Shown here piece by piece: positions 14,750 through 64,000 of a DNA stretch of 64,000 bases. This DNA comes from Massalongia carnosa. Lineage: Eukaryota. Under the pieces are notes generated by a model. That model worked only from the letters and a program-made list of their open reading frames with translations, did not search any database and was not told the DNA's origin. The position numbers were made by a program, and so were the translations under genes. The stretch spans positions 1,364,001 to 1,428,000 of the forward strand of contig OZ287086.1 in assembly GCA_965645245.1 (NCBI GenBank), in the 5' to 3' direction. The stretch's first letter is position 1; the number at the start of each line of letters is the position of its first letter.

Positions 14750-14900
14750 AAGCACAGAGTCACAAAACACATAGTCATCAATCACACGTTGTACAAAGCA
14801 CACAGTCACAAAGCATACAGTCACAAACATACAGTCACAAACACAGTCAAAAAACACACAGTCACAAAATACACAGTCACAAAAATCACAGTCACAAATC
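14750..14900. repeat. Degenerate ~13-15 bp tandem repeat (ACACAGTCACAAA)
   Basis: Repeated CAGTCACAAA motif. Confidence 0.75.
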
Positions 14901-31130: not shown

Positions 31131-31220
31131 TTTTCCCTATCTCCCCCGATATAACAAAAATCCCGCTATAACGAAATTATTTTGGTAAAACGCCACCATC
31201 GTTATGGCGGGGTTCGACTG

Positions 31221-31721: not shown

Positions 31722-31789
31722 GGTGGCGCAATAGTAGAAATCTATTCACTATCTCGCTTCGTCACAACTATAAGATACTTTCGTTTGAC

Positions 31790-32300
31790 CCTTCTGACGG
31801 ATCAGCTTCTTGAAAACACTACATTAACGATATGTTATTCGATTATCTGAACAAATTGTTCACGACTTATCTGAACGATTTTTGAATTTATTGCAAGTGT
31901 GACGAAGCGAGACAGTTAATAGATTTCTACAATTGCGCCACCTGTCCTCCCGACCAAAAGGCACAATACTTAGTCCGCAGACCAAGCTCTATTCTACTAT
32001 AACTGGGACTCCTGCTATGTTCGCTGTAGGTCCTGCCGTCCGCACCACGCTTGGTCGCACCGTAACAGCAAGACTTTAAAGAAATATCAAAAACACGATC
32101 GAATTTTTGTAATTAAACTTCTAAAAGCGGAATTGCAAGCAGACGCTAACAAATGCGAATTTCATGTAATTGAAATCAAATACTTGAGATTGATCATTAA
32201 CGTTGATAATATTCGCATGAATTCAATTAAAGTCAAGATTATTCAAGAATAAAAAATCACAATTTTCTTACGCGATATCAGATCGTTCATTAATATTTGC
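31790..32300 (+). pseudogene. Heavily mutated Gypsy RT fragment (RIP-like)
   Basis: TTYLNDF, LQADANKCEFHVIEIKYLRLII, IQE*, DIRSFI; AT-rich; split by a solo LTR. Confidence 0.75.
31898..32067 (-). mobile_element. 170-bp solo LTR, same family as 31551-31721
   Basis: TG...CA ends with perfect GCAAG TSD. Confidence 0.92.
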
Positions 32301-32925
32301 AGTCTAGTTCGTCTATGGCGGGAGCTAGTGCGGGACCGATGCTATTCGGCTACCAGCGGTTCTCCACGCATGACGGGGATAACAGGTGATGCAAATCCGG
32401 ATCTCTTCGGTTTTGCACGGTTATCAGCCAGGAGCTGGTTCGGATAACGACGGGGGATCGGATAGGGAAGGATGGATGACAGGGGGGAGATGGAGGCTAT
32501 ATAGAGGGCCAAAGCAGTCCTACATCTCCTTATCATCTCGGATTCGGAGGTAGCACTGCATAGTAATTTTTGACCCGCCCACCCTCTCCAGGTCTCAGCC
32601 GCAGAGGTAGAGGGAGTATCCACCGCGATCTGCACCAAGGCCCGAAAGGTGTCAAATTATAGGATAACTAGTCCTAAACATCAGTGGTAACTCAGGATGA
32701 TATATCCGAAGGGTTATTCCGGCCCGACTAGACACGTGGCCTCCCCCCTTAGATAGATTCCCACTTTTCCACATCCTCCACAATATAATCAACATCTACC
32801 CAATTCCCTGATTATGCCTTTTGACCCTTATATATTTGACAGTTATGAGCCCGGATAGTCGTAAAGACACCGCAAATCGTCAAGAGCATTAGATTCTTAA
32901 ATTCAACGAGACAGCAATCGCGAAA

Positions 32926-33978
32926 ATGGCAGCAGAATCCAAAACGATGAGGACAATCCTCGAGACATCAGAGGATTAGGAGACCTGGTATGATGAATTG
33001 AAAACGATATCAGCTAATGAGTTTTGGAATATGGCAGATCCAGACCAACCTACTGTTCTTCCTGCGGCAGCTCCCTACAAGCCGGTAGTAGCAGACATAG
33101 TACAAGGAGAGACACTATACACAAACCTCTCAGCCGCAAATCAGCGAATGTTCGATAATGCAAGAAAACATTACGAGTCGGATCAGAAAGACTATATAAG
33201 ACAAGAAACCTCGTTGACGACGATAAGAAAACACATAGTAGAAACAGTTCCGATCACAAACCGAACGAGCCTGAAAGCGAGTATGTCAGTAAAGGAGTGT
33301 CTCATTATCTTACGAAACCTTATGGCACCTCCGACGGGACATTCCATGGCGTTGGCGAAGGAGAAATATGATAAGTTGCTTAGGATGAAGGCGAAACCGC
33401 TAGACTGGTTGGATAAGTGGGAGAAGGTAGTAGCCAAGGCCCGACAACACGATTTGTCGGAGTTCAAGCACGGAATATGGCTTGGAAATATGTCGTCGTG
33501 GATGAAACCACACGCACCAGAACTATCCTATGCACTTCGATCCAGAGGCAACGACGCCGCAAGAAATGACATATCGCAATATCCAGAAGTCCTACGAGAA
33601 ATCCGAGAATACTTGAGAGATGGAGTGAAGCAGACGGTCCGGGGAGCCGCGTGCCAGACGTTAGTGGACGACGAAGACGAAGATGGCCTACTAGAAGAAT
33701 TAGCCAATACAGCCACTAAGAGAAAGAGGGCAAATACAACTGGACAATCTCACCGTGGAGGGAAAAGGCACGATAAGATATGCCCTGCGTGTGAAAGACC
33801 AGGCCATGATCTCGAGAACTGTTGGTTTATATTCCCAGAAGGGAAACCAGATGACTACACTCTAGGGAAAAGGAAAACTAAAGAGGTAAACAATAGAGTG
33901 GATAAGGACAGGAAGTTAAAAAAAGAAGTCGAAAGGATAAGGAAGGATAAAAAGAAGGTTGAGGAGATTCCACCATAG
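32926..33978 (+). pseudogene. gag: Copia-B gag (early in-frame TAG at 32977)
   Basis: ATG at 32926 in frame with ORF 32998-33978; zinc knuckle CPACERPGHDLENC. Confidence 0.85.
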
Positions 33979-36900
33979 CAAATATCGTTGGTGGACCACC
34001 AAGATCTTCACGAATCAACGTCGGTGGATCATCAGAATCAAGACGAATCAATAGACGCTGCATTCCTTCTAAATCATCAATCAGAAACATCACTTCCTTC
34101 TTCATGGCCTGACGACATCCTAGATTCCGGAGCCTCCATACATGTCTTCAATGACATAGCTCGTTTCCAGAACTTCACTAAAGCATCAAAGATCATATAC
34201 ATACAAGCCGGATCATCAAGGATTCCAATCCTTGGTTACGGTAGTGTCAGAATACCTATACTCCGAGAAGATAAATCTGAGGGGGTGATGAGACTATCGA
34301 ACGTGGCATATTGTGTGGACTTCGTGGTAAATCTAGTGTCGTTTCAACAACTAAGAAAGAGAGATATATACTGGGACACGGAAAGGAATGTTCTATACAA
34401 GAAGACTAATAAAGGACGAAGGACAATTTGTCTGATTCATCAAGTTGACGAACTTCCTGCATTCCAAAGTCAGATTCATCTAGTAAGGCCGCATTGCTAA
34501 TAACTCCAATACCTCGTCGTCGTTCAGGAAAACCTAGATCCTCCTCAAAGGGAGATGCCTTCATCTGGCATTGTCGTATGGGACATCCTGGACCAATAAG
34601 CCTTCACAAACTAGGAGAGAACTCATTAGGTGTTACACTATTAGGGCCATCGACCACTCAGTGTGAGGCGTGTAGTCTGGCAAAGATGCATAGACAAATA
34701 TCACGTCGGCCAGGAAATAGAAAAGTAACGAAGCCATTCCAGGAACTGCACATAGATTGGACGGATTTCGATAAGGCCATGGATGGTTTTATACGAACAA
34801 TGTTTATCACAGACAAATATACTGGATTAGTCATACCTTATTTCATGTCAACACACGGAGAGGAGTCAGAAACCCTCAAGATTCTCAAAGACCTAATGGC
34901 TTGGTGCAAGCAACGGAACCTACTGATAGAAAGGATACGGTCAGATTTGGAGTTGAATAGAAAGCGTACCAACAAGTGGTTGTCATCGGTAGGGATAGAA
35001 TTCGAACCTTCCGCTCCTAGAACTGCAGCACAAAATGGTGTAGCGGAACGTTCAGGGGGTGTGATAGTGACGAAGGCGAGGGCGATGTCAATAGGAGCTA
35101 AGTTACCATCAAATCTCTGGAAGGAGGTAATAGATGCGTCAACGTATTTACATAAGAGGACTCCTAGAGAGGCTCAGTCGTGGAAATCACCGTTCGAAAC
35201 ATTCTACAAAACCAACCCTCAATTGGCCCATTTAAAGGCCTATGGCTGCAGAGCATATGCGATGACTGAGGACGCTCAACTTTATAAGAACAGACGACAG
35301 AAACTCCAACCCCGTGCATATATAGGACACCTGGTAGGATACCGATCGACGAATATCTTTAGAGTGTGGATACCAGAAAGACATGGTGTCATCTCCACAC
35401 GAGACGTGATATTCGATGAGTCCAGATTCTACGAAGGACAGTTACCCGAAGAAGGAAAGTCTGAAGTAGAGAGAGAGACCATCATAAATAGGATCGAGTT
35501 GCCAGTGGCTGATGCAATAAATGAAAGCATCTTAGAGGAAGATGTGGAGATACTGGAGTATCATAATGATGAAGCAGAGGATATATCTGACGTCGATAGG
35601 CTTGATAGACCAGAAAAATTGATCGAGGATCTACGGGAACAAGAACGTGGATTACCAACACCACCACCAGATGAAGAAGACGAATTAGCCATGGCACTTC
35701 ATGCTCGGTTAGAAATTGAAGATATACATGAGGCAAGCTGCTCTCAATGTGACTTCGACGATAATATCTATATCAATAAAGAAGCACCACGCATCCAAAC
35801 ATCAGAACTCGGGGCATTTGCCGCTGGTCGGTTGTTCAGTAAGTTCCATAAGTTGAATCTACCCCCACCTCCCAAAACCATACGTGACCTGGAGGGTCAC
35901 ATGTTCGAGTCTCACTTCATCGATGCCATCAGAGAACATCTCGGTGAGAATGAGAAGATGGAGACGTTTGAACTAGTCGAAAGCAAGCATACCATAAGAC
36001 ATCAAGTGCTGGACTGCATGTGGGTTTTCACCTACAAGACAGACAGTGATGGCTATTTGGTAAAATGCAAAGCTAGATTAGTAGTATGTGGGAATCAACA
36101 AGAGGTTGGGGAACTACCAACACGAGCGACCACTTTGGCCAGCTCAGCATTCAGGTCCATGATGGCGTTAGTTGCGAAGTATGATCTAGAAACTAGACAA
36201 CTCGATGCAGTAAATGCATTTGTCAACTGGCCGCTGGACGAGGTGGTATACATACGTATTCCACCATATTATCCATTCACAGGTAGGCATTCGCATTCGC
36301 CGTCGAGCGGGCGGGCACTGAAAAGAGGACGACTCTATCAGAAGACCAAACAGCGGCGACCCCTGGTGAAATGATGACTTCTGTAAAAGGAAGGCCTTCA
36401 CACCCAAGAGTAAACGCGGCCAGTCTAGGTGAGAAACCATTCTGGAGAACTAGTCGACAAGGACTGATCACCCTTGAATCGGTATAGTCCCGGACAGTAA
36501 AGCTCAAAGGTGGAAGAGGTTAAATCAGAGATGTGGTCTAAAACAAAAATATGTGTTAAGACTGAGAAGAGCACTCTACGACCTGAGACGGTCACCATAT
36601 CTATGGCAGAAGCATCTGTCAAAAACATTTCAATCCATGGAATTTAGGGCCATACCTCAAGAATCATGTATAATGATGAGAGGCGGAATCCTAGTATTCT
36701 ATTATGTAGATGACACGGTATTTTGTTACCACAAATCGATCGAGGGTCAGGTCTTAAAAGCCATCGAGCATTTATGTTCAATATACACCATGAAATCACT
36801 GGGGGAAATCGAATGGTTCTTAGGAATCAGAGTCATAAGAGATAGGTCTAAACGACTTCTATGGCTATCCCAAGAGGCCTATATTGATAAGATAACTAAT

Positions 36901-37824
36901 AAATTCGATGCTCAACTAGATAAGAAACTACCAGATACTCCTATGATATCAACTCAATATACAGTCTCAGAAAACAAAGCCTCCCATCAGTCCATTCACT
37001 TATATCAACAAAGGATAGGAACAGCCCTATTCGCAGCCATAACCACCAGACCAGATATCGCATTCACGGTGTCCAAACTATCCCAATTCTCCATAAATCC
37101 TTCCGATGAACATCACCAGGCAGCGATGCGAGTCCTAGAATACCTATACGCCACCAAAACCCTGGCGATTCAATATGAAGGAAAACATGAGGAAGGGATA
37201 CAAGGGTTCCTATGTGCTAGCGACGCGTCCTTCGCGGACAACAAGGATAGGAAAAGTTCTCAAGGATATATAATGACGCTGTTCGGAGGACCGGTTGCAT
37301 GGAAAGCAAGCAAACAGGCGACGGTGACCACATCGAGCACTGAGGCCGAATTGCTGGCCTTGTCGGACACCACCAACGAAGCAATGTATCTAAGACGACT
37401 GTTAAAGGCCATCAAGGTGAGACTGGAGGGACCGGTGATCATCGACTGCGACAACAAACAGACTATCAACTTGATAACTAGTGAGGATATGAAGCTTCAA
37501 ACTCGGCTTCGCCATGTGGACATACATAATCACCGGTTGAGACTGGAATATCAGGCCGGTAGGGTGTCGATAAGATGGTTGGCCACAGCTAAGATGCCGG
37601 CGGACGGATTGACGAAGGCCTTATCAAGGCAGAAGCATGAGGGATTCATAAGATTGATAGGATTGGTGAACATATCGGAAAGATTGGACTCGATACGAAA
37701 GATGGAAAGTGTGAAAAATCGTCTAATGCATTCACAATCGGGCGTTCAGGTGGCGTGTTTCGGAGGACAAAGCATCAAGATGAGGAATATAAGGGATTAT
37801 ACTGGACTGATTCCAGATCTATAA
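33979..37824 (+). pseudogene. pol: Copia-B pol (PR-IN-RT-RH), frameshift near 34495 and ~260-bp insertion in RT
   Basis: ILDSGAS, WHCRMGH...CEAC, QNGVAER, KARLVV, YVDD, ADGLTK. Confidence 0.92.
36365..36472 (+). ncRNA. Candidate box C/D snoRNA-like module within the insertion in Copia-B RT
   Basis: GGTGA-AA-TGATGA ... CTGA-TCACC: terminal stem with C and D boxes in kink-turn geometry; no target identified. Confidence 0.35.
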
Positions 37825-38570
37825 ACGGTGTTTCTAGATCTGAGGGGGTGTGTCAAATTATAGGATAACTAATCCTAAACATCAGTGGTAACTCAGGATG
37901 ATATATCCGAAGGGTTATTCCGGCCCGACTAGACACGTGGCCTCCCCCCTTAGATAGATTCCCACTTTTCCACATCCTCCACAATACAATCAACATCTAC
38001 CCAATTCCCTGATTATGCCTTTTGACCCTTATATATTTGACAAAAGGGGGCGCTCGGTAGAGGCGCCGGCGAAGTGACGGCGCTAGCGAGGTGCAGATCG
38101 CTGCGTTTCCGCCAACCTTAGAAATAGAAGCAATACGAGGTCACATGAACTAGTGTTAAATTATCCTCCAAACCCCTTTATAGGTGTAGCGCAGCCCTGC
38201 GAGCCTTGGCGCGCTAGGCAGTATATAACAGCCATGTAGACAGATCTCAATAGAACACACCTTCTGCAGTCTTCTCTCCTCCCTACCTGATGTTGGAACT
38301 GTGACTGCAACAGGCGGAATGGTAGCACTGGGCAATTGATATGACTAGTTCGACAAACGAGTTCTTGCACATGCAAAACAAACTGGGAGAAACGATTGAC
38401 TTCCTACCACTACGTAGGGTAAAACTGCTCCTATTTATGCCCGTCCACCAGCGATTCCAGAAGCTTCCATTTCCATCTCATCGGTTCCTTCTTCCGATGC
38501 GCTTTCTGACTTCATACAAATTTGCCACTGCCACAAGCCTTTCCTTGCCGAGTGTAGATGCAAATTGCTT

Positions 38571-43959: not shown

Positions 43960-44850
43960 TGTTGGAATACTCGCTTAGCCCCATTAGTTCTAGCTCAGCC
44001 CTGCAGGCTGCCATGACTGCTATAAGCAGTCACCTCCGTAGTAATTTCAACATTATGCCGTCAACTGTTTATTTAACAGGTTATGAGTCCCGGGTTTGTG
44101 CTTTGCGCCCCTCCGACGGCATCCTTCATGCATAGACTACGTACTATCATGTCGTATCAAGAAGATGGTGAGGTGAAAGTTCAGACGTGGAAAGCGCGAA
44201 AACGAAGCGGAAACGACATCGAAAGGGATGAGAAACGAAGCGGAAACGAAGCGGAAACGTCATCGAAAGTGGTGTACGTACGAAACGTGCTGAGGAGGAC
44301 ATCTACAACGGGCGGTGCCTCGAAGACTTCACATCTTGCAATACTGGTCAGATCAGCAAGGGGAGATAAAAGCCCTGCGATCAGGCCACCAACGTCAATG
44401 GTCTGCGGGAAAATGTCTAACAGAGACATCGAGAAAAGCCCTGCTCAGGCCATCAACAAAACACGTCCATAGTACTCTTCCCATCCACCCATACACTCAC
44501 AAAAGCTACGTTTCGAGAGATGGTTATGGGTTTAATGAGGCTACAAAGCAGGACAACAAAAGACATAAGAAAGAACTACGTGCTCAGGGAAAATGGAGTC
44601 AGAGGGAGCTAGATTCGTTCCGCAAGGGGAGCGAATCGGACACAGCTGGATGAATCACTTCGCAAGGGGAGTGATAAAAGCTGGATAGTTTCAATTTTGG
44701 AGGCGAAAGGGGAGCCACGCTCGAAGGGGAGTGTTGGAATACTCGCTTAGCCCCATTAGTTCTAGCTCAGCCCTGCAGGCTGCCGTGACTGCTATAAGCA
44801 GTCACCTCCGTAGTAATTTCAACATTATGCCGTCAACTGTTTATTTAACA
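43960..44850 (+). mobile_element. TRIM-like non-autonomous Copia derivative (891 bp)
   Basis: 119-bp LTRs 43960-44078 and 44732-44850 (one visible mismatch), GTCGC TSD, PBS GGTTATGAGTCCC, PPT GAAGGGGAG. Confidence 0.93.
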
Positions 44851-49845: not shown

Positions 49846-50123
49846 GAATTAATATGAGCTGTATTCAGCGGATAATGCTTTTCATTGTCAATCCAGCGAT
49901 ATTTGCCTTTGTCGAACTAATCGTCGGCTAGTCTCTCGCTTACCTCGGCCGACTCGAGGCGTTCGCCTCTAGTCGGGGAAAGCAAAGTTCGGCGGATAGC
50001 AAAGTTCGTCTTTTCAACTTTTACACGCAAAAAACCAATCAAATAACGATGGGACTTTTTTTCTACAAAGATCAAGCATGAAAAAATTTATAATATTAGT
50101 TATACTAATAATAACCCAACTGC

Positions 50124-50179
50124 ATGAGTCGGCCTTTGGCCGGTGACACAACGGCGTAAGAATAATCAAATTCAAATCA
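50124..50179 (+). mobile_element. 56-bp 5'-truncated LINE 3' end with 14-bp TSD
   Basis: AATAACCCAACTGC direct repeats at 50110 and 50180; insert resembles the LINE 3' UTR at ~12870-12910. Confidence 0.75.
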
Positions 50180-50339
50180 AATAACCCAACTGCTCCTGAA
50201 AATCAACCTCGCCGCTGTCGTCGACTTCGTCGCCTACTTCCTCTTCTATTTCAAATGTAACGAAGTCTTTTTGTAGACGAATAGAATAACCTTTACTACA
50301 CTTAATTGTTGTACGTACTTGCGAACAGAAGGGGCGACC

Positions 50340-51488
50340 ATGAACGAAAATCTCGTACCAAGAAGTGCACAGTGCGAAGGTGAGCATAGAAAGGCGAAAG
50401 AGTCTCTGGTAATTAAAATCAAAGAGTATCTTGACCGTGTGGGTAACGTAGGAGACCCGGTAGCGTTGCAAATTTTGCAGGAATCGAGAATTGTGCTGGA
50501 GGCACAAAATCAATTAGACAAAAAATCGCACGACACCACACACGTGGTATCTGCTCTAAATGATATCAAAAGCACTCTACAGAGAATTGAAAGCAGAAAG
50601 GAGATCCCAACAGCAAGAAACTATGCCGCCGTCGCCGCGGCGGGACACCTCAATGAGGGCGGATCTGTACCGGTTCGAAGCACTCTAAACAACGTAAAGA
50701 CGCAGAAAGCGAAGGAACAAACACCAAGTATGATCAAAAGGGCAAGGGAACTCACCATACGAGTGACGAAGAGCGAGGATCGAGAAAGAATAAAGCAAAC
50801 GTCCACAAAGGACTTGGTGGAGGCGCTACAGAAGAGAAATGCAGGAATAATAGGAGTATCGCGTCTCAACAGTGGAGACATTAGGATACACACCGAAACG
50901 GCAGCGATTAAGATGTCTCTGTATGACAATACGGGCTGGGTGCGTGAAGTAGCCGCATCGGCAGCGGTGCAAAGGCGTACCTTTGCCATACAGGTACGTG
51001 GCGCCAGGATGCAACACATCGACGTCACCAATCAGACGAGAGCTATTGAGTACCTACATGCCGTTAATGCACGACTGCATGCGGGACTGAAGATCGTAAA
51101 GGTCGCTTGGTCCAACAAGGCCATCAGAGAAGGAAAAGTGCACTCTACGCTGCACATGGAAGTTGAAACTGCACCGATGGCCAACCAGCTCATCAACGAA
51201 GGTCTGCTCGTAGACTACGAGATCAAGCACTGTGAAAGATTTCACAAAAATAACATACTAGTGCAATGCTTCAACTGCTATAAGTATGGGCATATCAGCA
51301 AATGGTGTAAACACCCCACGGCCTGTGGGCGTTGTGCCGGCGGACATCCTACGCACGAGTGCAATCCCGAGACGACCGGAGCCCACCCCATGTGTGCCAC
51401 GTGCGAGAAGTCTGGTCACCCAGCGTGGTCCCCTGTGTGTGTGGTTCGAGCGAAGGAGAAGAAGAAAGTAAACGACGCAAGGAAATGA
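50340..51488 (+). CDS. LINE ORF1 (gag-like, three CCHC-type knuckles); stop may be premature, tail continues at 62007-62348
   Basis: CFNCYKYGHISKWC, CGRCAGGHPTHEC, CATCEKSGHPAWSPVC; ATG at 50340. Confidence 0.85.
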   Translation: MNENLVPRSAQCEGEHRKAKESLVIKIKEYLDRVGNVGDPVALQILQESRIVLEAQNQLDKKSHDTTHVVSALNDIKSTLQRIESRKEIPTARNYAAVAAAGHLNEGGSVPVRSTLNNVKTQKAKEQTPSMIKRARELTIRVTKSEDRERIKQTSTKDLVEALQKRNAGIIGVSRLNSGDIRIHTETAAIKMSLYDNTGWVREVAASAAVQRRTFAIQVRGARMQHIDVTNQTRAIEYLHAVNARLHAGLKIVKVAWSNKAIREGKVHSTLHMEVETAPMANQLINEGLLVDYEIKHCERFHKNNILVQCFNCYKYGHISKWCKHPTACGRCAGGHPTHECNPETTGAHPMCATCEKSGHPAWSPVCVVRAKEKKKVNDARK

Positions 51489-51643
51489 AAAGCGCATCTA
51501 TACGAAGCTGAAGGGCTGGCGGTGGCGCCAGCAACCCCCCAGCAGAGGCAGGGACTACAACGGTAAACCTAGAATTACGGACGGAAGACTTACCTACCAC
51601 ATGGAGTCTTATTAATGGGAAAAAAAGGAAAATATCGCGCACA

Positions 51644-51791
51644 CTAGTTCGTGTCAATCTCGTTATATTGCTACTAAGTATGTTTGGGCTATTGCTCACA
51701 GCCCCCGGCCTCGAGAGGGGGACTCGATAAGGGCCTTGCTGTCTACTAATGTAAGACCCTCTCGCAGGCCTTGGGCTGTGAACAGACTCCC
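51644..51791 (-). repeat. Repeat B2 (148 bp)
   Basis: Appears identical to 52187-52334. Confidence 0.95.
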
Positions 51792-51830
51792 TCTATCTAA
51801 GCGACAGAAGAACTGGAGTGGGTGGGTGGG

Positions 51831-52186
51831 AAAGAAAACGTTGCAAACAGTGCTATCAAAATGCTATGCTTTTTGATTGTCTTGAGATGTGAGATGATGA
51901 GGGATACCGTCTGGGACCTCCTCTTTATATATCTTCTTCCTATTCTCCTTGTCCTACTCTACCATCCCAGTATGCCCCATCAACGCGGCCCATAGCAAGG
52001 CATACACAAATCCGAAACCTAACTATCGTCCGAAGGATCGATGCGGTGCTAAGATCTCTATGCCGTGCTGAGACATCCTTATGGTGCTGAGACATCTATG
52101 CCGTCCGAGAGATCCATGCGGTGCCGAAATCAAAGCGGGAGCTGTCTCGATTAACGACGCACTAGCTCTCAGCATAGCCGAACTAG
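51831..52186 (-). repeat. Repeat A2 (356 bp)
   Basis: Two visible mismatches to 61651-62006. Confidence 0.95.
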
Positions 52187-52334
52187 CTAGTTCGTGTCAA
52201 TCTCGTTATATTGCTACTAAGTATGTTTGGGCTATTGCTCACAGCCCCCGGCCTCGAGAGGGGGACTCGATAAGGGCCTTGCTGTCTACTAATGTAAGAC
52301 CCTCTCGCAGGCCTTGGGCTGTGAACAGACTCCC
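52187..52334 (-). repeat. Repeat B1 (148 bp)
   Basis: Appears identical to 51644-51791. Confidence 0.95.
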
Positions 52335-52370
52335 AATCCCCAACATGGAACGACCCGCTTGCGGTGTTGT

Positions 52371-53426
52371 TCAGGACCTAGTGACTGGATTGTGAGGTTC
52401 CGTGGGTAATGTTTGAAGGCGTTTTGAGGCGTTAAGAAGGTAAGTGGGGTGGGTTTGTATGTAAAGCTTGTATGCGTCTGACTTCCATCTTCCTAGCATC
52501 TGAATCTCGTCTTCGGTGAGTCCTGCCCGTCGCGCTGTTGTTGCCGCACCTCTTCTGAACGAGTGGCCAGAGAAATTTCCTATATAGCCCAAGTTCCTTA
52601 AGGTGGATTTCATCGCTGTTGTAATGTAGTCTCGAGTGAAGGACTGACCGTTTTTAAAGAGTGGTGCGGCCGGAGAACTTGGGAATCGCCTATATAAATT
52701 TGTAAGAGAAGCTAGTGCACAAGCAACATCGTTGGTAGCCGCAATTGTCAGTGTTATGCCTCGGCGAAAGGGATCGGTTTTGGAGACTGGTAGAGAGAGC
52801 TGTAGGTGATCTGCTTCGAACCTAATAGATTTTCTGGTGAGGTGCCATTGATCAAAGCTTGGGTCTAGTACATCTTGCGTTGTGTAAGTAAATTCTCCGG
52901 CTCGTAAGAAGCCTGCAAACGCTAAGCAGTACGCCGCATGTAAATTTGCGCCTTTCTCTTTCGTTTGATCAAGACGACTTAGCAATTTGATTAAGATCTC
53001 TCTAGTAATTGGTAACCTTTCACGTTTCTCGGCTTCACCGTTCTTTCGCTTTATGCCAGTAAGGATGCGATCTAACACCGGGTGATGAAATACGTCGAGA
53101 TTACCGAGGCCCATATCTATCTGGCATGATCTTATGCCCGTCAAGTAGCTCTTAATAGTTTTTGGTTGCAGGCGTCGTTCACCCAACGCTGCGATCCACG
53201 AAGACAGCGTCCGGATGTTGGCTGGAAATGGTGGCGCGTTGAGGTTTACCCTACAGTAAAGAACGTATCCCTTTCTTGCCGTTGTGTATAAAGATCTTGT
53301 CTTAGTGGCCAGGCCCCACCAGAGGTATCGTGCTGCGATTTCGTCTAGAGGTACCTCACTGTACCAAGATGGGGGTGGATCGCGTCCTATATTGCTGAGG
53401 GTAGAGCCTGAAACTGAGGGATTTTG
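52371..53426 (-). CDS. Tyrosine recombinase (frame open to 53426, no upstream ATG)
   Basis: GFLRAGEF, SKTD, GHSFRRGAAT, LGRWKSDAYKLY give the R-K-H-R-W-Y catalytic set. Confidence 0.93.
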   Translation of the reverse strand, partial: QNPSVSGSTLSNIGRDPPPSWYSEVPLDEIAARYLWWGLATKTRSLYTTARKGYVLYCRVNLNAPPFPANIRTLSSWIAALGERRLQPKTIKSYLTGIRSCQIDMGLGNLDVFHHPVLDRILTGIKRKNGEAEKRERLPITREILIKLLSRLDQTKEKGANLHAAYCLAFAGFLRAGEFTYTTQDVLDPSFDQWHLTRKSIRFEADHLQLSLPVSKTDPFRRGITLTIAATNDVACALASLTNLYRRFPSSPAAPLFKNGQSFTRDYITTAMKSTLRNLGYIGNFSGHSFRRGAATTARRAGLTEDEIQMLGRWKSDAYKLYIQTHPTYLLNASKRLQTLPTEPHNPVTRS

Positions 53427-55003
53427 TCAGCCAGTTTCTTCAAAAGTCCTCTAGACAAGAGATCAGCAATATAATTTTCTTTGGATGATATCCATCGCGC
53501 TTCTATCTGGATATCATGTAATGCAGCTAGCATTGTAATTGCCCGCAGGGCATGCATTGCTTGGCCTCGTATAGAGGTTTTATTCACTCCTTTCGTGACA
53601 GCGTAGCTATCACAATAGAGGATTAAATGACTACCCTTGCATATAGGTAGCCACTTTTTCATAGCTTGAAGAATTGCTGTCATTTCTTTGACGTTGATAT
53701 GCTTTGCCCTAAGGCGCGTAGTAAAGCGTGTGCTAAAAGCCTGCCGGGCTGCTTGTATATTATGCAAATTTTGATCCTCGCTGAGGATAAAGCCGCCCAT
53801 ACCATATGAGCCGGACGCATCTGTCCATATTCTCATAGTATGTCTAGTACGGTTGAGCAGATGTATGCCATTCCATTTAGGTAGGAAATGATGCCACCAT
53901 AGAAGATCAGCCCTCATGTCCTTGTTAAGATGGATTAGTTTAGAGGTTACGCTTGCCGTAGCATTGAAAAGACGGCGTAGAAAGGCTCTTCCTGGTTTTA
54001 CCACTCTGGCTGCAAAGCATAAGAATCCTAGAAGAGAGTCGAGTTCCTTCCTGGGTATGGCTTTTTTATTCAAGGCTGCCGATACTAGGGTCTTTGCTTT
54101 TAGTAACTTTTCGGAAGGCAAGCGTGCTTCCATGAGCGCGGTATCGATTTCAATGCCGAGGAAATCGCAAGTCGTTCCAGTTCTGTTCTTTTCGAGCTTG
54201 ATTTTCATGCCAAGATCTTTACAAATGTTGTGGAAAACTTGATCAAACTTTTCAGCATCTGGTCCGGTGCTGACTATTATTAAAAAATCATCCAAGTAAT
54301 GAATAGCGTCTTTCCAACCACAGTTGTACAATATCCAGTTGATACCCTTCGCGAACAGATCAAAAAGGAACGGCGACGTTCTCAGCCCAAAGGGTAAGTA
54401 TTTATCCATCCAAAAGGAATCCTGCCACTTGAAACCTAGTAACCACCAATCGCTTTTTGCTACTGGTATGTGGCGAAAAGCGTCCGCAAAGTCTCTTTTA
54501 ATAAGAATACACCCTGGCCCGCGTTGCTCAATCAACCTAATGGCTTCGTCGAAGCTGGTATATTCCAGGGAGCCCCAGTCTTCCGGTATGTGGTCGTTGA
54601 CTGAGCTACTCTCCGGATACGATAGATGATGGATTCGCCGCCAACCACCGTTAGCCTTTGGTACAAGGCCTAATGGGGAACATATAAAGCAAGAAGGAAT
54701 GTTGTTGACTTTCTCCAACCGATTACTAGCTATTTGTTCTTCGAGGTCATTGGTAAGAACTTCCGGTGCCTCATTTGCAGAGGCAAGATTATCGCTAATA
54801 ATGAGTTGATGTGGTCCTGTATAACCAACTTTGGCACCGTAGGTGATGATATCGATAATTGTTTGTGTGTAAGTGCGATCCGGGTGATTGGCCAAATGTT
54901 TCTCCCAGCCTTCTTTCTTCAATGGGCCCGGTGGGATCTTTGTTAGATTGTCCGTCAAGGTGTATGGAAAGGACTCCGCGATGGATAAGAATGGGGCGGT
55001 TAG
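53387..55003 (-). CDS. Reverse transcriptase-RNase H of DIRS/Ngaro type, in frame with gag after one TGA
   Basis: WRRIHHLS, LPFGLRTSP, YLDD, WTDAS, EMTA, YCDS, ADLLSR. Confidence 0.93.
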   Translation of the reverse strand, partial: LTAPFLSIAESFPYTLTDNLTKIPPGPLKKEGWEKHLANHPDRTYTQTIIDIITYGAKVGYTGPHQLIISDNLASANEAPEVLTNDLEEQIASNRLEKVNNIPSCFICSPLGLVPKANGGWRRIHHLSYPESSSVNDHIPEDWGSLEYTSFDEAIRLIEQRGPGCILIKRDFADAFRHIPVAKSDWWLLGFKWQDSFWMDKYLPFGLRTSPFLFDLFAKGINWILYNCGWKDAIHYLDDFLIIVSTGPDAEKFDQVFHNICKDLGMKIKLEKNRTGTTCDFLGIEIDTALMEARLPSEKLLKAKTLVSAALNKKAIPRKELDSLLGFLCFAARVVKPGRAFLRRLFNATASVTSKLIHLNKDMRADLLWWHHFLPKWNGIHLLNRTRHTMRIWTDASGSYGMGGFILSEDQNLHNIQAARQAFSTRFTTRLRAKHINVKEMTAILQAMKKWLPICKGSHLILYCDSYAVTKGVNKTSIRGQAMHALRAITMLAALHDIQIEARWISSKENYIADLLSRGLLKKLADKIPQFQALPSAI

Positions 55004-56158
55004 TCATTGCCTTGATGGGAGAGGCATCGAATTTGGGTTAGAGGGTTGATTTTTTCCATTTGTACAGTCCATCGCCCGATGTTGCTTTCCACATTTCTCA
55101 CACACATGTTGGAATCTACAATATACGGGACAGTCTTTGCCATAGTTGTATTTCTTACAGATAATCTTTTCGCCTGAGGTTTTGAAAGCCGTAGAATTAT
55201 CGTCCGGTTTTGCAAAGTAAGCGGACGGTTTCCGCACAAGATGCCTTTCCAAGGAATGGTCCATTTCTTTCCATCCATCCGGGTTGTCAATCCCGCGAAA
55301 GGCTCGAGATTTGTGGAAATTCAAATGAAAGATGCGAACCGAGTCCCAGGTGTAGAAGGCGTATAATGATAGAAGATGGTCCTGATAAGCCATGAAGGCT
55401 CTCATCAGGTTTATCTGGAGACCGGGGTGTGCAAAGTGTAGTAGTATCATCCAATATACCCCGAGACATCGTATCAAATGAACTATCCCTTTGATATCTT
55501 TTAAGGAGCCATCTTCTTCTCTCGTGGCGATTTCCAGACCTTCTCCGAGTTTGACGTATCTAGAGTTGGTTTGAACTCCGTCGATGTCGGTACATAGCTT
55601 GGTAATGTTGATTGGGTCAAACGTATTCTCGGAGATTTGCTTTATCCATATGGGCTTGATAGTGGGATATTCGTTCATAAGAGAAACAAAACGAGGATCC
55701 ATACCTTCTGTATACAATGAGTTTGGTCGATGCGGTGGAAATGATGTCGGAAATAATAGGGAAGGCTGTTGAGCTGAGGCTACTGGCCCAGGGACCACGT
55801 CTCGGGCACGTGCTTGTTGGGTTTCGATATCCCGCCTAAGACTTACTCTTTCTCTTTCCTCGGCTTCCCTGCGGGACATTTCGCGTTGTGCTCTAAGTTC
55901 AATAATGTCATCAGGGGTGCGAGAACGGGTTTCCGGTATAACAGGCCCTTGTGAGGAGGAATTAAACGCTGAAGATGGAAGAGGAGAAGGTTGAGGATGG
56001 CTTTGAAGGGTTGCCGTGCTGTCTTGTGAGTCGGGTACTTCGACGTCTGGGTTGGAGTTGGCTAGATTTGCCCTAGCTCTAGTTCTAGTACGGGCTAGAG
56101 TGCTGCCTTGTGTGCGGGAGGTAGGCTTGGTGATTCTGTTGGAGATGCGGGTGGCCAT
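55004..56158 (-). CDS. Gag-like ORF1 with C-terminal Cys/His zinc fingers
   Basis: CKKYNYGKDCPVYCRFQH and CEKCGKQHRAMDC; position upstream of RT. Confidence 0.85.
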   Translation of the reverse strand: MATRISNRITKPTSRTQGSTLARTRTRARANLANSNPDVEVPDSQDSTATLQSHPQPSPLPSSAFNSSSQGPVIPETRSRTPDDIIELRAQREMSRREAEERERVSLRRDIETQQARARDVVPGPVASAQQPSLLFPTSFPPHRPNSLYTEGMDPRFVSLMNEYPTIKPIWIKQISENTFDPINITKLCTDIDGVQTNSRYVKLGEGLEIATREEDGSLKDIKGIVHLIRCLGVYWMILLHFAHPGLQINLMRAFMAYQDHLLSLYAFYTWDSVRIFHLNFHKSRAFRGIDNPDGWKEMDHSLERHLVRKPSAYFAKPDDNSTAFKTSGEKIICKKYNYGKDCPVYCRFQHVCEKCGKQHRAMDCTNGKNQPSNPNSMPLPSRQ

Positions 56159-56216
56159 TTTTGGAGGAGAGGGATTTGAATAGAGTAAATTTAAGTGTAG
56201 TGGTTGTATAAATTTG

Positions 56217-59200
56217 TGTCGGACCGTTCTTATTGATCTGGAAAATGATGTTCTCCTTGTCTATCTAAACTGGAAATTCTAGCTAGCTATATAGACCATT
56301 TCGCCACATTCTTTCATAATCTAGATATCTTCCAGCCACTTCTATTTACTAATAGATCATTAGTGATCCGGAACCCATGCGAGGTACAATGCTTTGAAAT
56401 CATTGAGTATTAGAAATCAGATCTATGGCATAGAAAGAAATAGCATCTGAAAGATCGAGGCCTCGGTTATTAGTCCGAAATCACGTGCTTTTCCTTCAAC
56501 AGGATCTTACTTCGGGAATTGGCTTGAACCACGGTCTATTAATATCGACATACCCCCCCAGATTTAGCATACTATGCTGAAGCTGCTTCCTGACCTTGAT
56601 TAGCCAGTATGACTGATATGTCAGTCAAATGCAGCTGTTTGATGAAATCGTCATGTTTCTGACGAGGTAAGACCTTGGTAAATCCGTCGGCAGGCATTTC
56701 CGCTGTGGGCATCCAACTGACGTTTATACGACCAGCTTGAACTTCTTGCCTTAACCAGTGACGATGTATATCCACATGCCGAAGCTTAGTATCTAGCTTC
56801 AACATCTCTTTATCTAGGATTCTGAGGGTCTGGCGATTATCGCACCGAATGTGCAACTTTTCCATGGGATTGAACCGAATGGCTTGAAAAAACCGTTTCC
56901 ACCACATAGCTTCCTTGGCGGTCCGAGACAGGGCTAGCAACTCGGCTTCAGTGCTCGATGTGGTGACCGTGGCTTGTTTAGCTGCTCGCCAGTCTATTGG
57001 TCCACCATACAGCTGAAAAAGGTAACCATCGGAGCTTCTTCGAGTCAACTCATCATCAGCAAACGCTGCATCGCTAGCACACATCAGAATGTCAGTTTTC
57101 TGATGACCGTTATATTCTATAGCCAGGTTTTTAGTCCCATTTAGATAAGCAATAACCCGATCGGCCGCAGACAGATGATCCGGGCACGGGTTTTGTAAGA
57201 ATTGAGCTAATTTTGCAGTTGCAAAAGCTATATCGGGCCGGGATATTACCGCTGCGAAGTTCAATGAACCTACCCGTTGCTGGTACGCATATATACGTTG
57301 ACTGTCTGCTTTTTGCTCGTTTTCATTGGCTGTAGGCACCACTGTCAGTGGTGTTTTCGCGGTTTCCCCGTGCTGATTAAATTTCGCAGCCATTTTGGTA
57401 ATGTATGAGTCCTGACATAACCATATCTTCTTATTTGCTCGGTCTCGGGTAATCCTTATACCGAGAAACCATTTCAATTCCCCTAGAGCATGCATTTCGA
57501 ATCGTTTCAGGAGAGCTTTCTCAAATTCTTGTAATTTGTCCGAATTATGCTTCCTGCATATGACCACAATGTCATCGACATAGAAGAATAGGATAATCCA
57601 CTCATTGGCAAATAGACAGTTGACCCCTGGGACTGGCGCTAGTCCGAGTTCCTCTAGGGCCATGGTTAGGAGCTTATACCATAGAATCGGTGCTTGTTTT
57701 AATCCGTACAGAGCTTTTCTAAGCTTCCAACAGTATCCGGGCTTGTCAAAACCTTCTGGACACTCACAAAAGATTTCCTCATCAATCGGGCTATTTATGA
57801 AAGCACTGACCGCATCATACTGGTAGATATCAAGGTCAAATGCAGCTGAAATAGCCATTAGAGCTCGAAACGTTCTCGCTGCCAATGTTGCAGCATACGT
57901 ATCTTGCTGAGTCATCTGAAGATCTCCTCGTACACATAGACGGGCCTTGAATTTCTCAACATAGCCGTCGGTGTCATGCTTATACTTAAATACCCAGGTG
58001 AGTGGTATCCGGTCCTGTCCCTGAACCTTTTCCACTAGCTCGTACGTACCACGCTTTTCAAGCTCGGTGAGCTCTTTGATGGCCGCTAGCTGGAATTCCT
58101 GCGAAAAACGGTGATGGAGCATCTGCCTCCAATATCGGGGCTCCACCGGGATCTCATCCCGATGGAATTTCTTCAAGGTTCCGACCTGTGGCCGTTCTAG
58201 GCCGACCGAAAACGCTGCATGGAACGGGGTTAACTTGCTGACTGATGCCAGCGCAATTGCATATGCCTGTTTCCTTGATCTAGTGTTCCTGGCAATTGAT
58301 TCATCCGTTGTCTCTACCACCCGAGGCGTCCGTCTCGGCCTAGCCGACTGTCTCGGCTGGCTCGGTCCGTCCTCGGTTGATTGAACACCTGGCATTCCTT
58401 GAACGTCCGGCTCGGAGCTTAAAACCATCACGCTCCGGTGTCTTTTCAGGGGTAGGTAAGTGAGGATTGTTTTCCATATCGATATGAGGAAACATCGTCT
58501 TTTCTGACGTTTCTGTTTCACTAGGTTGATTGGTTGTTTGGTCCAATCTCGGACCTACCTCCTCATCGTCTTGCTCAATCATCACTCCTGCAAAGGATGT
58601 TTCGGGCACTTCCAACACCTGAATCACGTTTTCCACGGTTATGTTTAATAAATGTCCTATATCGAGCTCATTGGGCTCATAAAATCTTGTCTTATCAAAC
58701 ATTACATCCCTGGTCCGGATGACTTTCATATGGCTGGGAATCCATATTCGAAAGATGTTAGTGGAGTCGTACCCCACCAGGTATCCAATAAAAGCCCTTG
58801 GTTCGAGCTTCTCTTTCCTGGGAATCACCTGATTAAGCGGGAACGCTCGACAACCATACGGCTGCAGGTGAGATAGTTTCGGTTTTTCCCCGGTTAATTT
58901 ATCTATTGGTGTTTTCCACCCTAGCATCTTCTTCGGGGTCCGGTTATTTAGATAACCAACCGTTTTGAATATTTCTGGCCACATACTAGCTGGCAAATTT
59001 GCTGCTATGCGCAGGGCCCGCGCTCGGATCACCAGTACCCCCCCAGATCGCTCGGTTTGACCGTTTTGTGCTGGAGTATATGGGGCCGATCTTTCGGTGG
59101 TGATACCTCTCATTTTCATGAACTCGGCGAATTCTAAGCCGAGGGTTCGCTCGTCGTCTGTTCGAAAAAACCGAACGGTCTGATCGTATCTAGTCTTGGT

Positions 59201-61635
59201 CATTTTCAGGAATTCCTTGATCACCCCTAGAGCATCATTTTTTCGAGTATGGGTGTAGACGAAGTCCATACTGGTATAAAAACACCTGAAGTGGCTCACC
59301 CAGTTGTCCCCGTTGTATGCTTCAGTCAGCTGAATAAGGTCATACCCTACTCGACCGAGCGGAAAATTCGCTGGCTCTTCCTGTCCCGAACGTCTCGAGA
59401 TCAGGTGATGGGCTTTGGTCAGCGAGCATGTCTCGCATTGCATCGTATTCGGTGCTGACTCGGGTACTGTTACCTTAACTCCATCTACCCCCTTTTCGAG
59501 GTGAGAAATTGTTTCCGGTCCAGGATGACCGAGCATCTCGTGCCACTCTTTTCCCGTCGCTATCAATTCCGGTTTCGGACTGGTACTGGCCGCAAATGCT
59601 CTATGTGACCTTACCGTTGGTGGGTTGTCTTCTATCACCCAATGGCCCCCTATTTGCTTGGTGCGGCAGAACGTCTTTCCCTTCTGATGCAGATGAGAAT
59701 GTTCGGTGTCCCAGTGAACCCCCTTCTTTGTTAGCTTGCTTAGGCACACCAAATTGGTGAAAAATCCTGAGGATAGCGCCACATCTAGAAGCCTGATTGG
59801 CACCGGCCCATAGGTCCTTGTGCCGTGATATCTACCGTTCCATATCCATCTATGCTATAAACGGTTTTTCCGGCCATGAGCTTGTCATCAGTGTTTGCTG
59901 TACGCGTCAACTGAAACCGCTCCGGATCATTGCATACATGAATGTCTGTTCCGCAATCCAGGGTCCAACAGTTGACCAACCTATGTGGCTCCGGTTCGGA
60001 AGCAACTGCAAACGTTGAAAACGATCTAGGTGGTGCGGCAGGCAAGATCGAGACTGATGATCCGGCAGGCACTATCGAAACTGCAAATGCTGCAGGATCG
60101 GATTTTTCTGAAGACGATTTCTCTTCCCTTCCGACTTTTTCGACTTGTTTTGCGTGCTTATCTCGGACCGACTTGATGATCTTATCTAGCCGATGATTCT
60201 TAGCTAGCTTTTCTTCTATTATTTTCTCAATGCTCTTATCCGGGGTCCACCCCTCTGGCCTCAGGTCCTTGAGCAAATAGTAGCAATCCTTGAAGCGGTG
60301 CTTCTTGCCACATATGCACTTCTTCTCGGAATTTCCTTGGTCCGAGTTAGATCCCTGAGCTGATTTTTGACTCATTGTCGAGTTCGATTTTTCTTGATCT
60401 GATTGGTCAGATCCTTGAAATGTTGCAAATGCCGAATGGGTAGCCCCCTTGCTATCTAGGGCCCTGGCGGTTCGCAAATGATTCCGGAATTCTTCCAGAA
60501 GATCCCTTATCGAGAAATCTTCCTCATTCCGATGAATTTTATACTGTAATATGGCCTCTCTACCGGCCACAAACGAACCGTCCACTGTCCTTAGCGCATT
60601 CAAGAAATCATAAATGCATCTATGTCCCTGAACGTCCGGAATTTTCAGTCTATCCGCTTCTGCATAGACTTTCTCCCATTCCAACAACCAGTGATCCAGT
60701 TGCTGACTCTTGGGGGCACGTTGTAGGTCCTTATATTTCCGAATAACTTCGAGTTCTCGGATCCGGTCCGTCGGTGCAAGCCTCTTCTTTAGAGCTGATA
60801 ACTTCTTATATATCGAGTCCTGTCCCCTGAGATATAACAAATTGGTCCGATCCACGGTGGTCAATATATATGCTTCCAGGTTTTTTAGGGCTTCGGTCTT
60901 CTCCCGATACGTACGCAAGTCTTCTCTATGATCCTCTCTTCGCAATATCAGATCCCGTCGCTGTCCCTCGGTTAAGTCCTCGGATGACACGGCACCTGCT
61001 TTCATGGAAGAGAAGGTAGGGGTAATGGGTCTGATTGGCTCGTCTGGCTCAGGTTTCGCCAGGTCCACATACTGCTCGATTCCACCTCGCTTGGCCATGG
61101 ACTCCACGATAAGGATCCATTCATCCCAGTCACCGGGCTCCTTGAGGACTACCACGGTTTTCTGACTAGAAGCGGGCAAGGTAGAGAAAGACATCTTCTG
61201 TTCGATTGTCCAAAGAAGATGGAAGAAGTAACAATAAAGGTCAATAAGAACTTGGGGATACTGATCGATGAATGCAGCGATTAGGAAGCCGGGCTCATAA
61301 CTGTCGGACCGTTCTTATTGATCTGGAAAATGATGTTCTCCTTGTCTATCTAAACTGGAAATTCTAGCTAGCTATATAGACCATTTCGCCACATTCTTTC
61401 ATAATCTAGATATCTTCCAGCCACTTCTATTTACTAATAGATCATTAGTGATCCGGAACCCATGCGAGGTACAATGCTTTGAAATCATTGAGTATTAGAA
61501 ATCAGATCTATGGCATAGAAAGAAATAGCATCTGAAAGATCGAGGCCTCGGTTATTAGTCCGAAATCACGTGCTTTTCCTTCAACAGGATCTTACTTCGG
61601 GAATTGGCTTGAACCACGGTCTATTAATATCGACA
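56217..61635 (-). mobile_element. Ty1/Copia retrotransposon (Copia-C) inserted in the 5' leader of the YR element
   Basis: 334-bp LTRs 56217-56550 and 61302-61635 with no visible mismatch, ATTTG TSD, PBS GTTATGAGCCC, PPT GGGGGGG. Confidence 0.97.
56572..61194 (-). pseudogene. Copia-C gag-pol with two frameshifts (near 59800 and 58450-58520)
   Basis: CICGKKHRFKDC, TLDCGT, WHEMLGH...CETC, QNGQTER, KARLCVRG, YVDD, ADGFTK. Confidence 0.92.
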
Positions 61636-61650
61636 ATTTGAATTGGGTGA

Positions 61651-62006
61651 AAAGAAAACGTTGCAAACAGTGCTATCAAAATGCTATGCTTTTTGATTGT
61701 CTTGAGATGTGAGATGATGAGGGATACCGTCTGGGACCTCCTCTTTATATATCTTCTTCCTATTCTCCTTGTCCTACTCTACCATCCCAGTATGCCCCAT
61801 CAACGCGGCCCATAGCAAGGCATACACAAATCCGAAACCTAACTGTCGTCCGAAGGATCGATGCGGTGCTAAGATCTCTATGCCGGGCTGAGACATCCTT
61901 ATGGTGCTGAGACATCTATGCCGTCCGAGAGATCCATGCGGTGCCGAAATCAAAGCGGGAGCTGTCTCGATTAACGACGCACTAGCTCTCAGCATAGCCG
62001 AACTAG
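61651..62006 (-). repeat. Repeat A1 (356 bp)
   Basis: Matches 51831-52186; contains a TATA-like motif and ~18-20 bp internal subrepeats. Confidence 0.95.
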
Positions 62007-62344
62007 ATAACCCAATCCGCCACACAGGCGAATCAGCCGAGGAGCCTACCAGGTGCCGAGACCGGAATCACATGGAAGGACATCGAGATCATGAACCCGG
62101 CAAACAGAATAAGGGCGATGGCGAAGCCCACTCTGGGTAGACCCCCCAACGCTGTCAATAGTGCCCCCTGCCCCCCTACTACCCTATCTCCTCCCATCCC
62201 TCTCCCATCCAAACCAGCAGTCACCCTAACCGCTCCGCCCCCCACCCACCATCGCACCGCGACCGCTCCGCAAGGGGCCCATTTGGAAGTACAAATCCCT
62301 ACCCAATCGAAAACGACTCCCTCGAGAGACATGGATGAAGCTTT

Positions 62345-64000
62345 ATGAAGGACAAAAAAAATCAATTAGCATCCTACAGTACAATGTCAGAAATGATCGC
62401 GTAAGTACTATGATACCATTGCTAGCGGATTCAAATATACAGGACTACGACATCATAGCAATCCAGGAGCCGTGGCGCAACCCCCACGCTGCGAGCACGC
62501 TCAGCCCGCATCAAAGCGGCTTTAATCTACTCTATCGGCCAGGAGGTGACACGAGAGTGTGCTTCTACATCAACGATAAAATAGATCCGGAAAGCTGGAA
62601 AGTAAATTTTCCAACCGCTGACATATGCACATTGATATTGCACCCCCGCGAGAATGACGGAAGCCACAAGGAAATACACATTCACAACGTCTATAATCCA
62701 TCACCCACCTCATATTCTTCAAGAGACGGCCCCTCCACCCTCCCAGATGCTCAACGCCAGCTCTCCGCCGACGCTCATCACATCTTACTCGGGGATTTCA
62801 ATCTACACGATCCTTTCTGGAATGGAGCCACCAGACCCACGCAACACGCAGCCGCGGATCAGCTGCTAGATATAGTCGATGAAGCCAATCTGTCGCTAAC
62901 CCTGCCCAATGGAACCGTCACATGGGAAGCCCGAAACTCATTCAGCACCATCGATTTGGTTTTCATGTCAGAATTCCTAACAGAGAGGCTAATTCACTGC
63001 ATGTCAAGACCAGAACTCAATCAGTCATCCGATCACATTCCGATATCCTCCCGCATCTCTTTGGAAAGTGAGACGCTAACACAGACAAAACGCAGAGCCT
63101 GGAAGCTGCTGAACATGGAAAAGTTGAGAACAGCAGAATGCAACGCTCCCCCGATAACACTTCCTCGCACAGTGGAGGAGATTGATCGACAGACGGATAA
63201 AATACAAAAGTTCTTACATGAAATAATATCTGCGGCCGTTCCATGGGCAAGGCCTAGTGCTTATGCAAAACCATTCTGGAACGAGGACTGCAACAACGCC
63301 ATGAGAGAAACACGCAGAATTCGAAAAATTTGGACAGCCTCTCGAAATATCAATGACTGGAAAACGTACATGAAATCGAATGACAAAAAGCAAAAGATAA
63401 TCAAGAAAGCCAAAACATTGTCATTCCGAAACGAGATCAGTAAAGCGTCTGAATCATCTCAGGGCATATGGCGGCTGGCGAAATGGGCAAAGGACAAGAG
63501 TCACAAGGCGCGCGAAACACCAAAAATGCCAACACTGACTTTCAACAATCACAGCGCGAACACCTTCGAAGAGAAGGCTGAAATGCTGAAAGGCATCTTC
63601 TTTCCTGCTCCACCTCCGGCAGATCTACAGGACATACCCGGGTCGGTCTATCCGGCAGCCTCGGAGTGCCCAACAGTCATAACGAAGAAAGAGGTGCTCA
63701 CGAACATTCTACGCCTCAAACCCGACACGGCTCCTGGACCGGATGGCATACCCAATAGAGTTCTCAAAGCGTGCTCTGAGACGCTGACCGAGTTGTTAAC
63801 TCCTCTATTTCAGGCGTGCGTAAATCTGGGATATCACCCGCGAGCATTCAGAACAGCGCACACGATAACGCTGAAAAAGGCGGGCAAAGACAATTACGAA
63901 ACGCCGAAGGCCTATCGCCCGATAGCACTGCTGAATACGCTAGGCAAGGTGATGGAAGCCATCATGGCAAGCAAGATCACTCACATGGCCGAAAAGCACG
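62345..64000 (+). CDS. LINE ORF2 (APE endonuclease and start of RT), partial; frameshift in an A-run just after the ATG
   Basis: LQYNV, IAIQEPW, GDFN, SDH, APGPDGIP and YRPIALLNTLGK read in one frame; ATG overlaps the ORF1 stop (ATGA). Confidence 0.88.

Follow-up and report, generated by a model that had tools for sequence, protein, structure and literature searches.

We analysed a 64,000-nucleotide stretch of genomic DNA (contig OZ287086.1, positions 1,364,001 to 1,428,000 of the forward strand; hereafter referred to as the window), in which the segment 51644–62006 had been described, from the sequence alone, as a complete Ngaro-type retrotransposon with a tyrosine recombinase (YR). This segment is probably a single copy of a Ngaro-type YR retrotransposon whose family is young and multi-copy, with a Ty1/copia element that entered its 5′ leader later. 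The YR element has two pairs of split direct repeats (A1/A2 and B1/B2) and open reading frames (ORFs) for a gag-like protein, for a pol protein with reverse transcriptase (RT) and RNase H domains and for the recombinase. Its features, from the 5′ end, are the following.

62006–51644, minus strand: YR retrotransposon with Ngaro-type split direct repeats, in the order A1, gag, RT/RNase H, YR, B1, A2, B2
61644–62006, minus strand: A1, the 5′ terminal repeat (BLAST against A2; outer end 62006 set by the empty-site joint described below)
56217–61635, minus strand: nested Ty1/copia long terminal repeat (LTR) retrotransposon, 5,419 bp, between A1 and gag (recognized by its LTRs, duplication and domains)
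55004–56158, minus strand: gag-like ORF1, 384 amino acids, with its ATG at 56158 and a TGA stop at 55006–55004, followed by CTA
53387–55003, minus strand: pol ORF (RT and RNase H), 538 codons from stop to stop, in the gag frame directly after the TGA
52371–53426, minus strand: YR ORF, 351 codons from stop to stop, in the -1 frame and overlapping the end of pol by 40 nt
52187–52334, minus strand: B1 repeat, directly adjoining A2
51823–52186, minus strand: A2, the internal copy of A1 (BLAST)
51792–51822, minus strand: unique 31-nt spacer from A2 to B2 (read from the sequence)
51644–51791, minus strand: B2, the 3′ terminal repeat (outer end 51644 set by the empty-site joint)

Architecture, classification and insertion site

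The order of repeats and genes proposed in the initial annotation (A1-gag-RT/RNase H-YR-B1-A2-B2, with near-identical repeats) proved to be real and to run along the minus strand; the 31-nt spacer had been overlooked. In BLAST alignments, A1 matched A2 at 98.9% identity across 364 nt (with 3 mismatches and 1 gap), and B1 matched B2 at 100% across 148 nt. The junction of B1 and A2 forms a perfect 16-bp palindrome with the centre CTAG|CTAG. A TATAAA motif was spotted by eye inside A1 (61749–61744), and a search for inverted repeats of at least 40 nt returned 0 pairs in 50000–64000. The leader comprises 8 nt from A1 to the copia element and 58 nt from the copia element to gag. The YR element measures 4,939 bp once the copia element and a single copy of the flanking duplication are subtracted. 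The claim of a complete element is not upheld in a strict sense, as the copia insertion sits in the leader.

The gag-like protein has a CX2CX3HX4C knuckle close to its C-terminus. It matched no family in Pfam, and tblastn detected counterparts with 22–35% identity upstream of pol in relatives. The pol ORF contains RVT_1 (E 2.9e-14) and RT_RNaseH (E 1.4e-7) domains. When the YR of the window was compared on its own with the Phage_integrase family, the match (E 1.7e-4, 21.8 bits) stayed below the Pfam cut-off of 27.1; 30 of the 38 aligned members of the YR family matched Phage_integrase, and the catalytic-type residues R175, K216, H288, R291, W314 and Y322 were invariant or nearly so across the 38 sequences. 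A profile of the YR family aligned with both domains of the Cre recombinase of phage P1 (E 2.6e-8), covering the N-terminal and catalytic parts with the LRxxE arginine, the HxxR motif and the tryptophan. This similarity is remote, being seen at the profile level, and the element, unlike the Cre system, has no lox-like 13-8-13 site, only the 16-bp palindrome where B meets A. Neither a methyltransferase domain (at E ≤ 1) nor an rve-type (DDE integrase) domain was found in the ORFs of the YR element itself. The reported lack of a methyltransferase is upheld by these results. The reported lack of an integrase or protease applies to the YR element and not to the interval as a whole, which holds an entire Ty1/copia element.

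The features that assign the element to Ngaro are its split direct repeats, the YR in place of a DDE integrase, an RT/RNase H without a methyltransferase and, as described below, insertion without a target duplication. The Ngaro-type call in the initial annotation is therefore sound on structural criteria, the assignment being made from structure and domains. Split direct repeats also occur in PAT-like elements, where they are accompanied by a methyltransferase domain in pol, and the repeats by themselves would be compatible with that group. We nevertheless regard a PAT-like or DIRS1-like identity as hardly credible, because pol has no methyltransferase and there is no space for one, with gag, pol and YR filling the interior, and because the inverted terminal repeats of DIRS1-like elements are absent. 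Having set these groups aside in favour of Ngaro, we note one departure: Ngaro elements are defined, in the available portions of two papers, by split direct repeats of the form A1-[ORFs]-B1A2B2 (PMC8547959, PMC13465315), and the window element has the 31-nt spacer between A2 and B2.

The available portion of the one systematic survey of fungal YR retrotransposons (Muszewska et al. 2013, PMC3783388) places fungal Ngaro elements in Basidiomycota, reports a single truncated, repeat-less copy from Ascomycota, which it discusses as a possible horizontal transfer, and notes a possible shift of the YR frame in every fungal Ngaro group. The window element resembles Ngaro elements, groups 1–4 of that survey included, in the B1-A2 split repeats, the order gag-RT/RNase H-YR, the lack of a DDE integrase, protease or methyltransferase, the lack of a target duplication and the shift of the YR frame relative to pol. 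It differs in its apparent Pezizomycotina host, in its layout with a single ATG and in the in-frame TGA-CTA between gag and pol; for its A2-B2 spacer, we found no mention in the portion of the survey available. The Ngaro elements from Cafeteria burkhardae (Hackl et al. 2021, PMC8547959), compared by their description, have the same repeats and gene set and also insert into other mobile elements, but they belong to another host kingdom, are about 6 kb long and are GC-rich. According to the accessible part of a 2026 paper (PMC13465315), these elements are found chiefly in Mucoromycota and Basidiomycota, and figure legends of a 2023 preprint plot LTR/Ngaro density for a lichen-fungus genome. Literature searches on Ngaro or DIRS elements in ascomycetes or lichen fungi returned RepeatMasker-type tallies and the preprint just mentioned, with no intact ascomycete element described (subscription journals, Repbase and Dfam were outside the search). 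The suggestion that the lineage is poorly described may hold, judging from these literature searches.

The nested element is bounded by LTRs at 56217–56550 and 61302–61635, which are 334 bp long, 100% identical and end in TG..CA, and it is flanked by a 5-bp duplication, CAAAT (61640–61636 and 56216–56212). It contains RVT_2 (E 4e-45) and integrase-associated SH3 (SH3_retrovirus, E 5e-21) domains, together with weak matches to rve_3 and Pol_BBD. The TG..CA LTRs, the 5-bp duplication and an RVT_2-type RT located after the integrase identify it as Ty1/copia. Its coding region is broken into three ORFs despite the identity of the LTRs. Contigs from sister copies have an additional G behind 59811 and, in some cases, TTTCC behind 58421, from which we conclude that the nested copy was probably already defective on insertion. 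The same copia family is also represented by a solo LTR at 11411–11696, in the opposite orientation, with 98–100% identity and with about 43 nt missing from its interior.

The YR element itself interrupts a long interspersed nuclear element (LINE), whose two parts flank it as follows.

50340–51643, plus strand: left part of the host LINE (ORF1-like, CCHC-rich), from the ORF listing and from contigs that run from 51643 to 62007
62007–63999, plus strand: right part of the host LINE (ORF2, with an apurinic/apyrimidinic (AP)-type endonuclease; Exo_endo_phos_2, E 2.4e-19), extending past the window

Logan contigs from four public runs (X1, X2, X5 and X6) were mapped onto 50000–63500. One contig each from X1 and X2 joined 51643 straight to 62007, so that 10,363 nt are bypassed, with 0 ambiguous letters. 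Both contigs deviate at several positions from the flanks in the window and bear a 19-nt insertion, and they therefore represent a paralogous LINE copy without the YR element. Because no letters are shared at the joint, the ends of the YR element are exact, and its insertion involved neither a target duplication nor microhomology. The ends 51644 and 62006 given in the initial annotation are correct to the nucleotide, and the absence of a target duplication is borne out by the empty site. We are confident that the element inserted between ORF1 and ORF2 of the LINE without duplicating its target. A second joint in X1 and X2, from 56210 to 61635 (5,424 nt skipped, 6 ambiguous letters), shows that sister copies of the YR element exist without the copia insertion. 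The sequence of events is LINE first, then the YR element, then copia. Runs X5 and X6 covered part of the YR element only, at a depth of about 2, and no inference was made from them.

Sister copies, relatives and host lineage

A search with pol recovered 1,869 homologues among 8,000 scored candidates. The 90% cluster containing the pol of the window has 24 members. The 15 proteins listed are 99.4–100% identical to the window copy, one of their 1–3 differences being the artificial first methionine set by the gene caller, and they occupy 34 placements on megabase-size contigs; these placements may cover several assemblies of one species and do not represent a copy number per genome. The family is young and multi-copy, and the young age that had been proposed for the element is supported by the identity of its sister copies. 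Since its ends are exact, an empty site is available and its near-identical copies are numerous, the family lends itself to studies of expression and insertion.

Near-identity of copies could also result if the family had arrived recently by horizontal transfer, with a basidiomycete or an animal as a possible donor, rather than being resident in an ascomycete lineage. The distribution of these elements in fungi is patchy, the lone ascomycete Ngaro of 2013 has itself been discussed, in the portion of that survey available, as a possible transfer (PMC3783388), and the nearest named Atlas clusters, for which broad taxa only are given, are commonest in Mollusca, Basidiomycota and Cnidaria. We consider such an arrival unlikely. 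A second Ngaro family (P0010, P0145, P0146, P0148, P0306 and P0406) is present on contigs that match those of the window's family in length, with 61–63% identity in pol (P0145, P0146 and P0148 among them) and 61–65% in YR. In a tree made by a quick method, without named reference rows and with loci having stops or short matches excluded, P0145, P0146 and P0148 of this second family, the window copy, P0002 and P0003 formed a six-row clade with a Shimodaira–Hasegawa-like approximate likelihood ratio test (SH-aLRT) support of 99, which fits diversification within the host lineage. Moreover, a pol search of 5.8 billion clusters found nothing more than 63% identical outside the family of the window, so no donor is in sight. 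These results favour an ascomycete-resident lineage: an intact multi-copy family of high identity, accompanied by a diverged sister family, means that this order of YR retrotransposons is alive in a Pezizomycotina-type genome. One row among the pol/YR relatives is labelled as a Chloroflexi metagenome-assembled genome; it is probably a mis-binned contig.

More distant relatives were found by a metagenome scan, which yielded 80 loci with pol 36–55% identical to that of the window. In five of them (L007, L011, L032, L034 and L079), both repeat pairs lie inside the retrieved DNA. B1 meets A2 with offsets of -4 to +1 nt in L007, L011, L034 and L079, and L032 has an 18-nt gap between B1 and A2 and an A1 that is cut by the contig start. 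A unique spacer of 48–333 nt separates A2 from B2 in all five, indicating that the spacer is a family trait and not damage.

The window consists almost entirely of transposons (copia, gypsy, Tc1/mariner, Fot1/pogo-like DDE_1 and LINE), and the sole ordinary gene seen in its 64 kb encodes a flavin adenine dinucleotide (FAD)-dependent monooxygenase (43974–42808, minus strand). The reading frame of this gene changes at 43185/43186, where an intron or a break may be present. The gene is bordered by a 120-bp repeat, and further copies of the repeat are located at 12117–12236 and 44731–44850. Genes of the FAD-monooxygenase type are often found in secondary-metabolite clusters, and such clusters are mobile between fungi. 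With one usable non-transposon gene in the window, it could be argued that the gene was transferred or is otherwise misleading and that the host is not an ascomycete. We hold this to be quite improbable. Among the 120 homologues listed, 19 are organism-named and all 19 are from Pezizomycotina (lineage checks covered three of the names, Truncatella angustata, Stictis and Circinaria calcarea), while the relatives without organism names form a graded series from 99% down to about 45% identity. Going by their names, sixteen of the 19 are lichen-forming Lecanoromycetes, and the other three are Truncatella or Pestalotiopsis. The LINE, Fot1/pogo-like DDE_1 and Tc1/mariner elements are compatible with an ascomycete without being diagnostic. 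The host genome is thus apparently that of a Pezizomycotina-type fungus, judging from the sequence of this gene, and the initial placement in the ascomycetes agrees with it. Taken together, the initial interpretation was largely right but overrated; the underlying observation was real and had been read incompletely, so that we regard it as partly confirmed.

Expression and propagation

Apart from the TGA, the three ORFs stay open for 1,273 codons. Introns were considered and rejected as unneeded, since the ORFs are colinear with those of relatives. The initial description of uninterrupted ORFs is correct for each of the three, but it passed over the TGA that splits gag from pol and the lack of an ATG near the conserved N-terminus of pol and YR. 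Only gag has an ATG in a good context. The first ATG of pol is at about codon 199, yet invariant residues are found at positions 33–191. The first ATG of YR is codon 105, and the stretch before this methionine aligns with the N-terminal domain of Cre.

An in-frame TGA and a YR without an ATG could in principle be defects, in which case the family would be non-autonomous or dead and copied by the proteins of another element; the lack of a recognizable frameshift signal is in keeping with this. We judge it very improbable on several grounds besides the otherwise open ORFs. Two contig records (record 11 of X2 and record 3 of X1) cross the gag TGA with 0 differences, showing that the TGA is the family consensus and not private to the window copy. 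Furthermore, relatives with 36–55% identity retain one in-frame stop, for which each of the three stop codons is used and whose positions are close but not identical, and they retain the -1 YR frame.

The arrangement in the relatives was quantified as follows. For the gag frame, 78 loci were examined; insufficient upstream DNA removed 19 of them and the lack of an upstream ORF of at least 200 amino acids removed another 16, leaving 43. The upstream ORF was in the pol frame in 28 of these 43 (exactly one stop in 19, 2–7 stops in 9), and it was out of frame by +1 in 9 and by -1 in 6. The stop was followed by C in 15 of the 19 single-stop loci, and nine had TGA CT. With respect to pol, the YR frame was -1 in 56 of the 60 cases that could be evaluated, of which the window is one, +1 in two and the same as pol in two; 21 cases were not evaluable. 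One subgroup of relatives (L034, L036, L041, L046, L051, L057 and L074) has an ATG in the YR frame, at a distance of nine codons from its start and immediately ahead of the conserved N-terminal motif, where the family of the window has none; the route to YR expression may therefore differ between sublineages.

The organization of gag and pol, in one frame with one stop between them, is like that of the murine leukaemia virus (MuLV), a gammaretrovirus. The stop context in the window, TGA CTA, corresponds exactly to the cellular readthrough motif UGA CU(A), which is reported, in the part of the source available, to be leaky in experiments on a fungus and on human cells (PMC4207609). In contrast to MuLV-type readthrough, no sign of a downstream stimulatory structure was found, and readthrough here is a prediction; the gag/pol boundary at TGA-CTA is directly testable.

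In the expression scheme that we propose, transcription would begin within A1, 3′ of the TATAAA motif, and end in or after B2, and the single ATG of gag would serve the entire RNA. Gag-Pol would be made by leaky termination at TGA-CTA. The recombinase would be made by a -1 shift within the 40-nt overlap, or through another non-standard start or route. In most relatives a CAG close to the beginning of the YR frame prompts the alternative that YR may be expressed from a spliced subgenomic RNA, but this CAG doubles as the glutamine codon of a conserved pol motif.

For replication, we follow the split-direct-repeat model reportedly put forward by Goodwin and Poulter. The RNA would lack the outer part of A1 and that of B2, and reverse transcription would give a circle in which the internal B1A2 copy restores the junction between the end of B and the start of A. 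The recombinase would then insert the circle at this junction, a mode of insertion that fits the duplication-free insertion observed. A candidate binding site for the recombinase is the palindrome that spans B1|A2.

Combining these points, we tentatively propose that the clade is resident and now transposing in Pezizomycotina, probably in lichen-type fungi, and that its three proteins may be produced from the single gag ATG through UGA-CUA readthrough followed by a non-canonical -1 shift. We consider this proposal possible but somewhat doubtful as a whole. A number of observations weigh against our main reading of the interval and the scheme attached to it. On the side of expression, no canonical X XXY YYZ slippery heptamer was found in the 40-nt overlap of pol and YR, and RNA folding was no better than in shuffled sequences either after the TGA (z +1.23) or after the pol/YR overlap (z +0.17). 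Translation of YR would consequently be the weakest step of the scheme, with neither a slippery heptamer nor a stimulatory structure found. The related loci, moreover, are not independent (L002, for example, is the same as L003), so that the counts given above describe the set and are no test of it. As for integration, the 16-bp palindrome is not conserved but confined to the family of the window: the five repeat-bearing relatives have just 4–6-bp palindromes nearby, and L007 has only the central CTAG in common with the junction palindrome of the window. The target flanks share 0 letters with the junction, which leaves strand exchange unexplained. On the side of the host, its placement is based on one gene, the best organism-named matches to which are just 60–66% identical, and the 34 placements carry the ambiguity mentioned above.

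Other features of the window

Indices of repeat-induced point mutation (RIP) gave no signal over the YR element. Within the window, only 14001–16000 and 30001–32000 exceeded both thresholds, and both are repeat-rich. A scan for bacterial-type promoters and terminators, a type of scan not applicable to a eukaryote, found nothing.

Three further LTR elements were noted. An apparently intact chromodomain gypsy element occupies 24104–31130, with 187-bp LTRs that are 99.5% identical and one uninterrupted frame of 2,111 codons. The other two, at 32649–38042 and 15009–21349, comprise one copia element (193-bp LTRs, 99% identical) and one gypsy element (LTRs of about 200 bp, 93% identical). Finally, a perfect tandem array at 13678–14308, composed of about 27 copies of a 23-nt unit with 100% identity, lies beneath three overlapping open frames.

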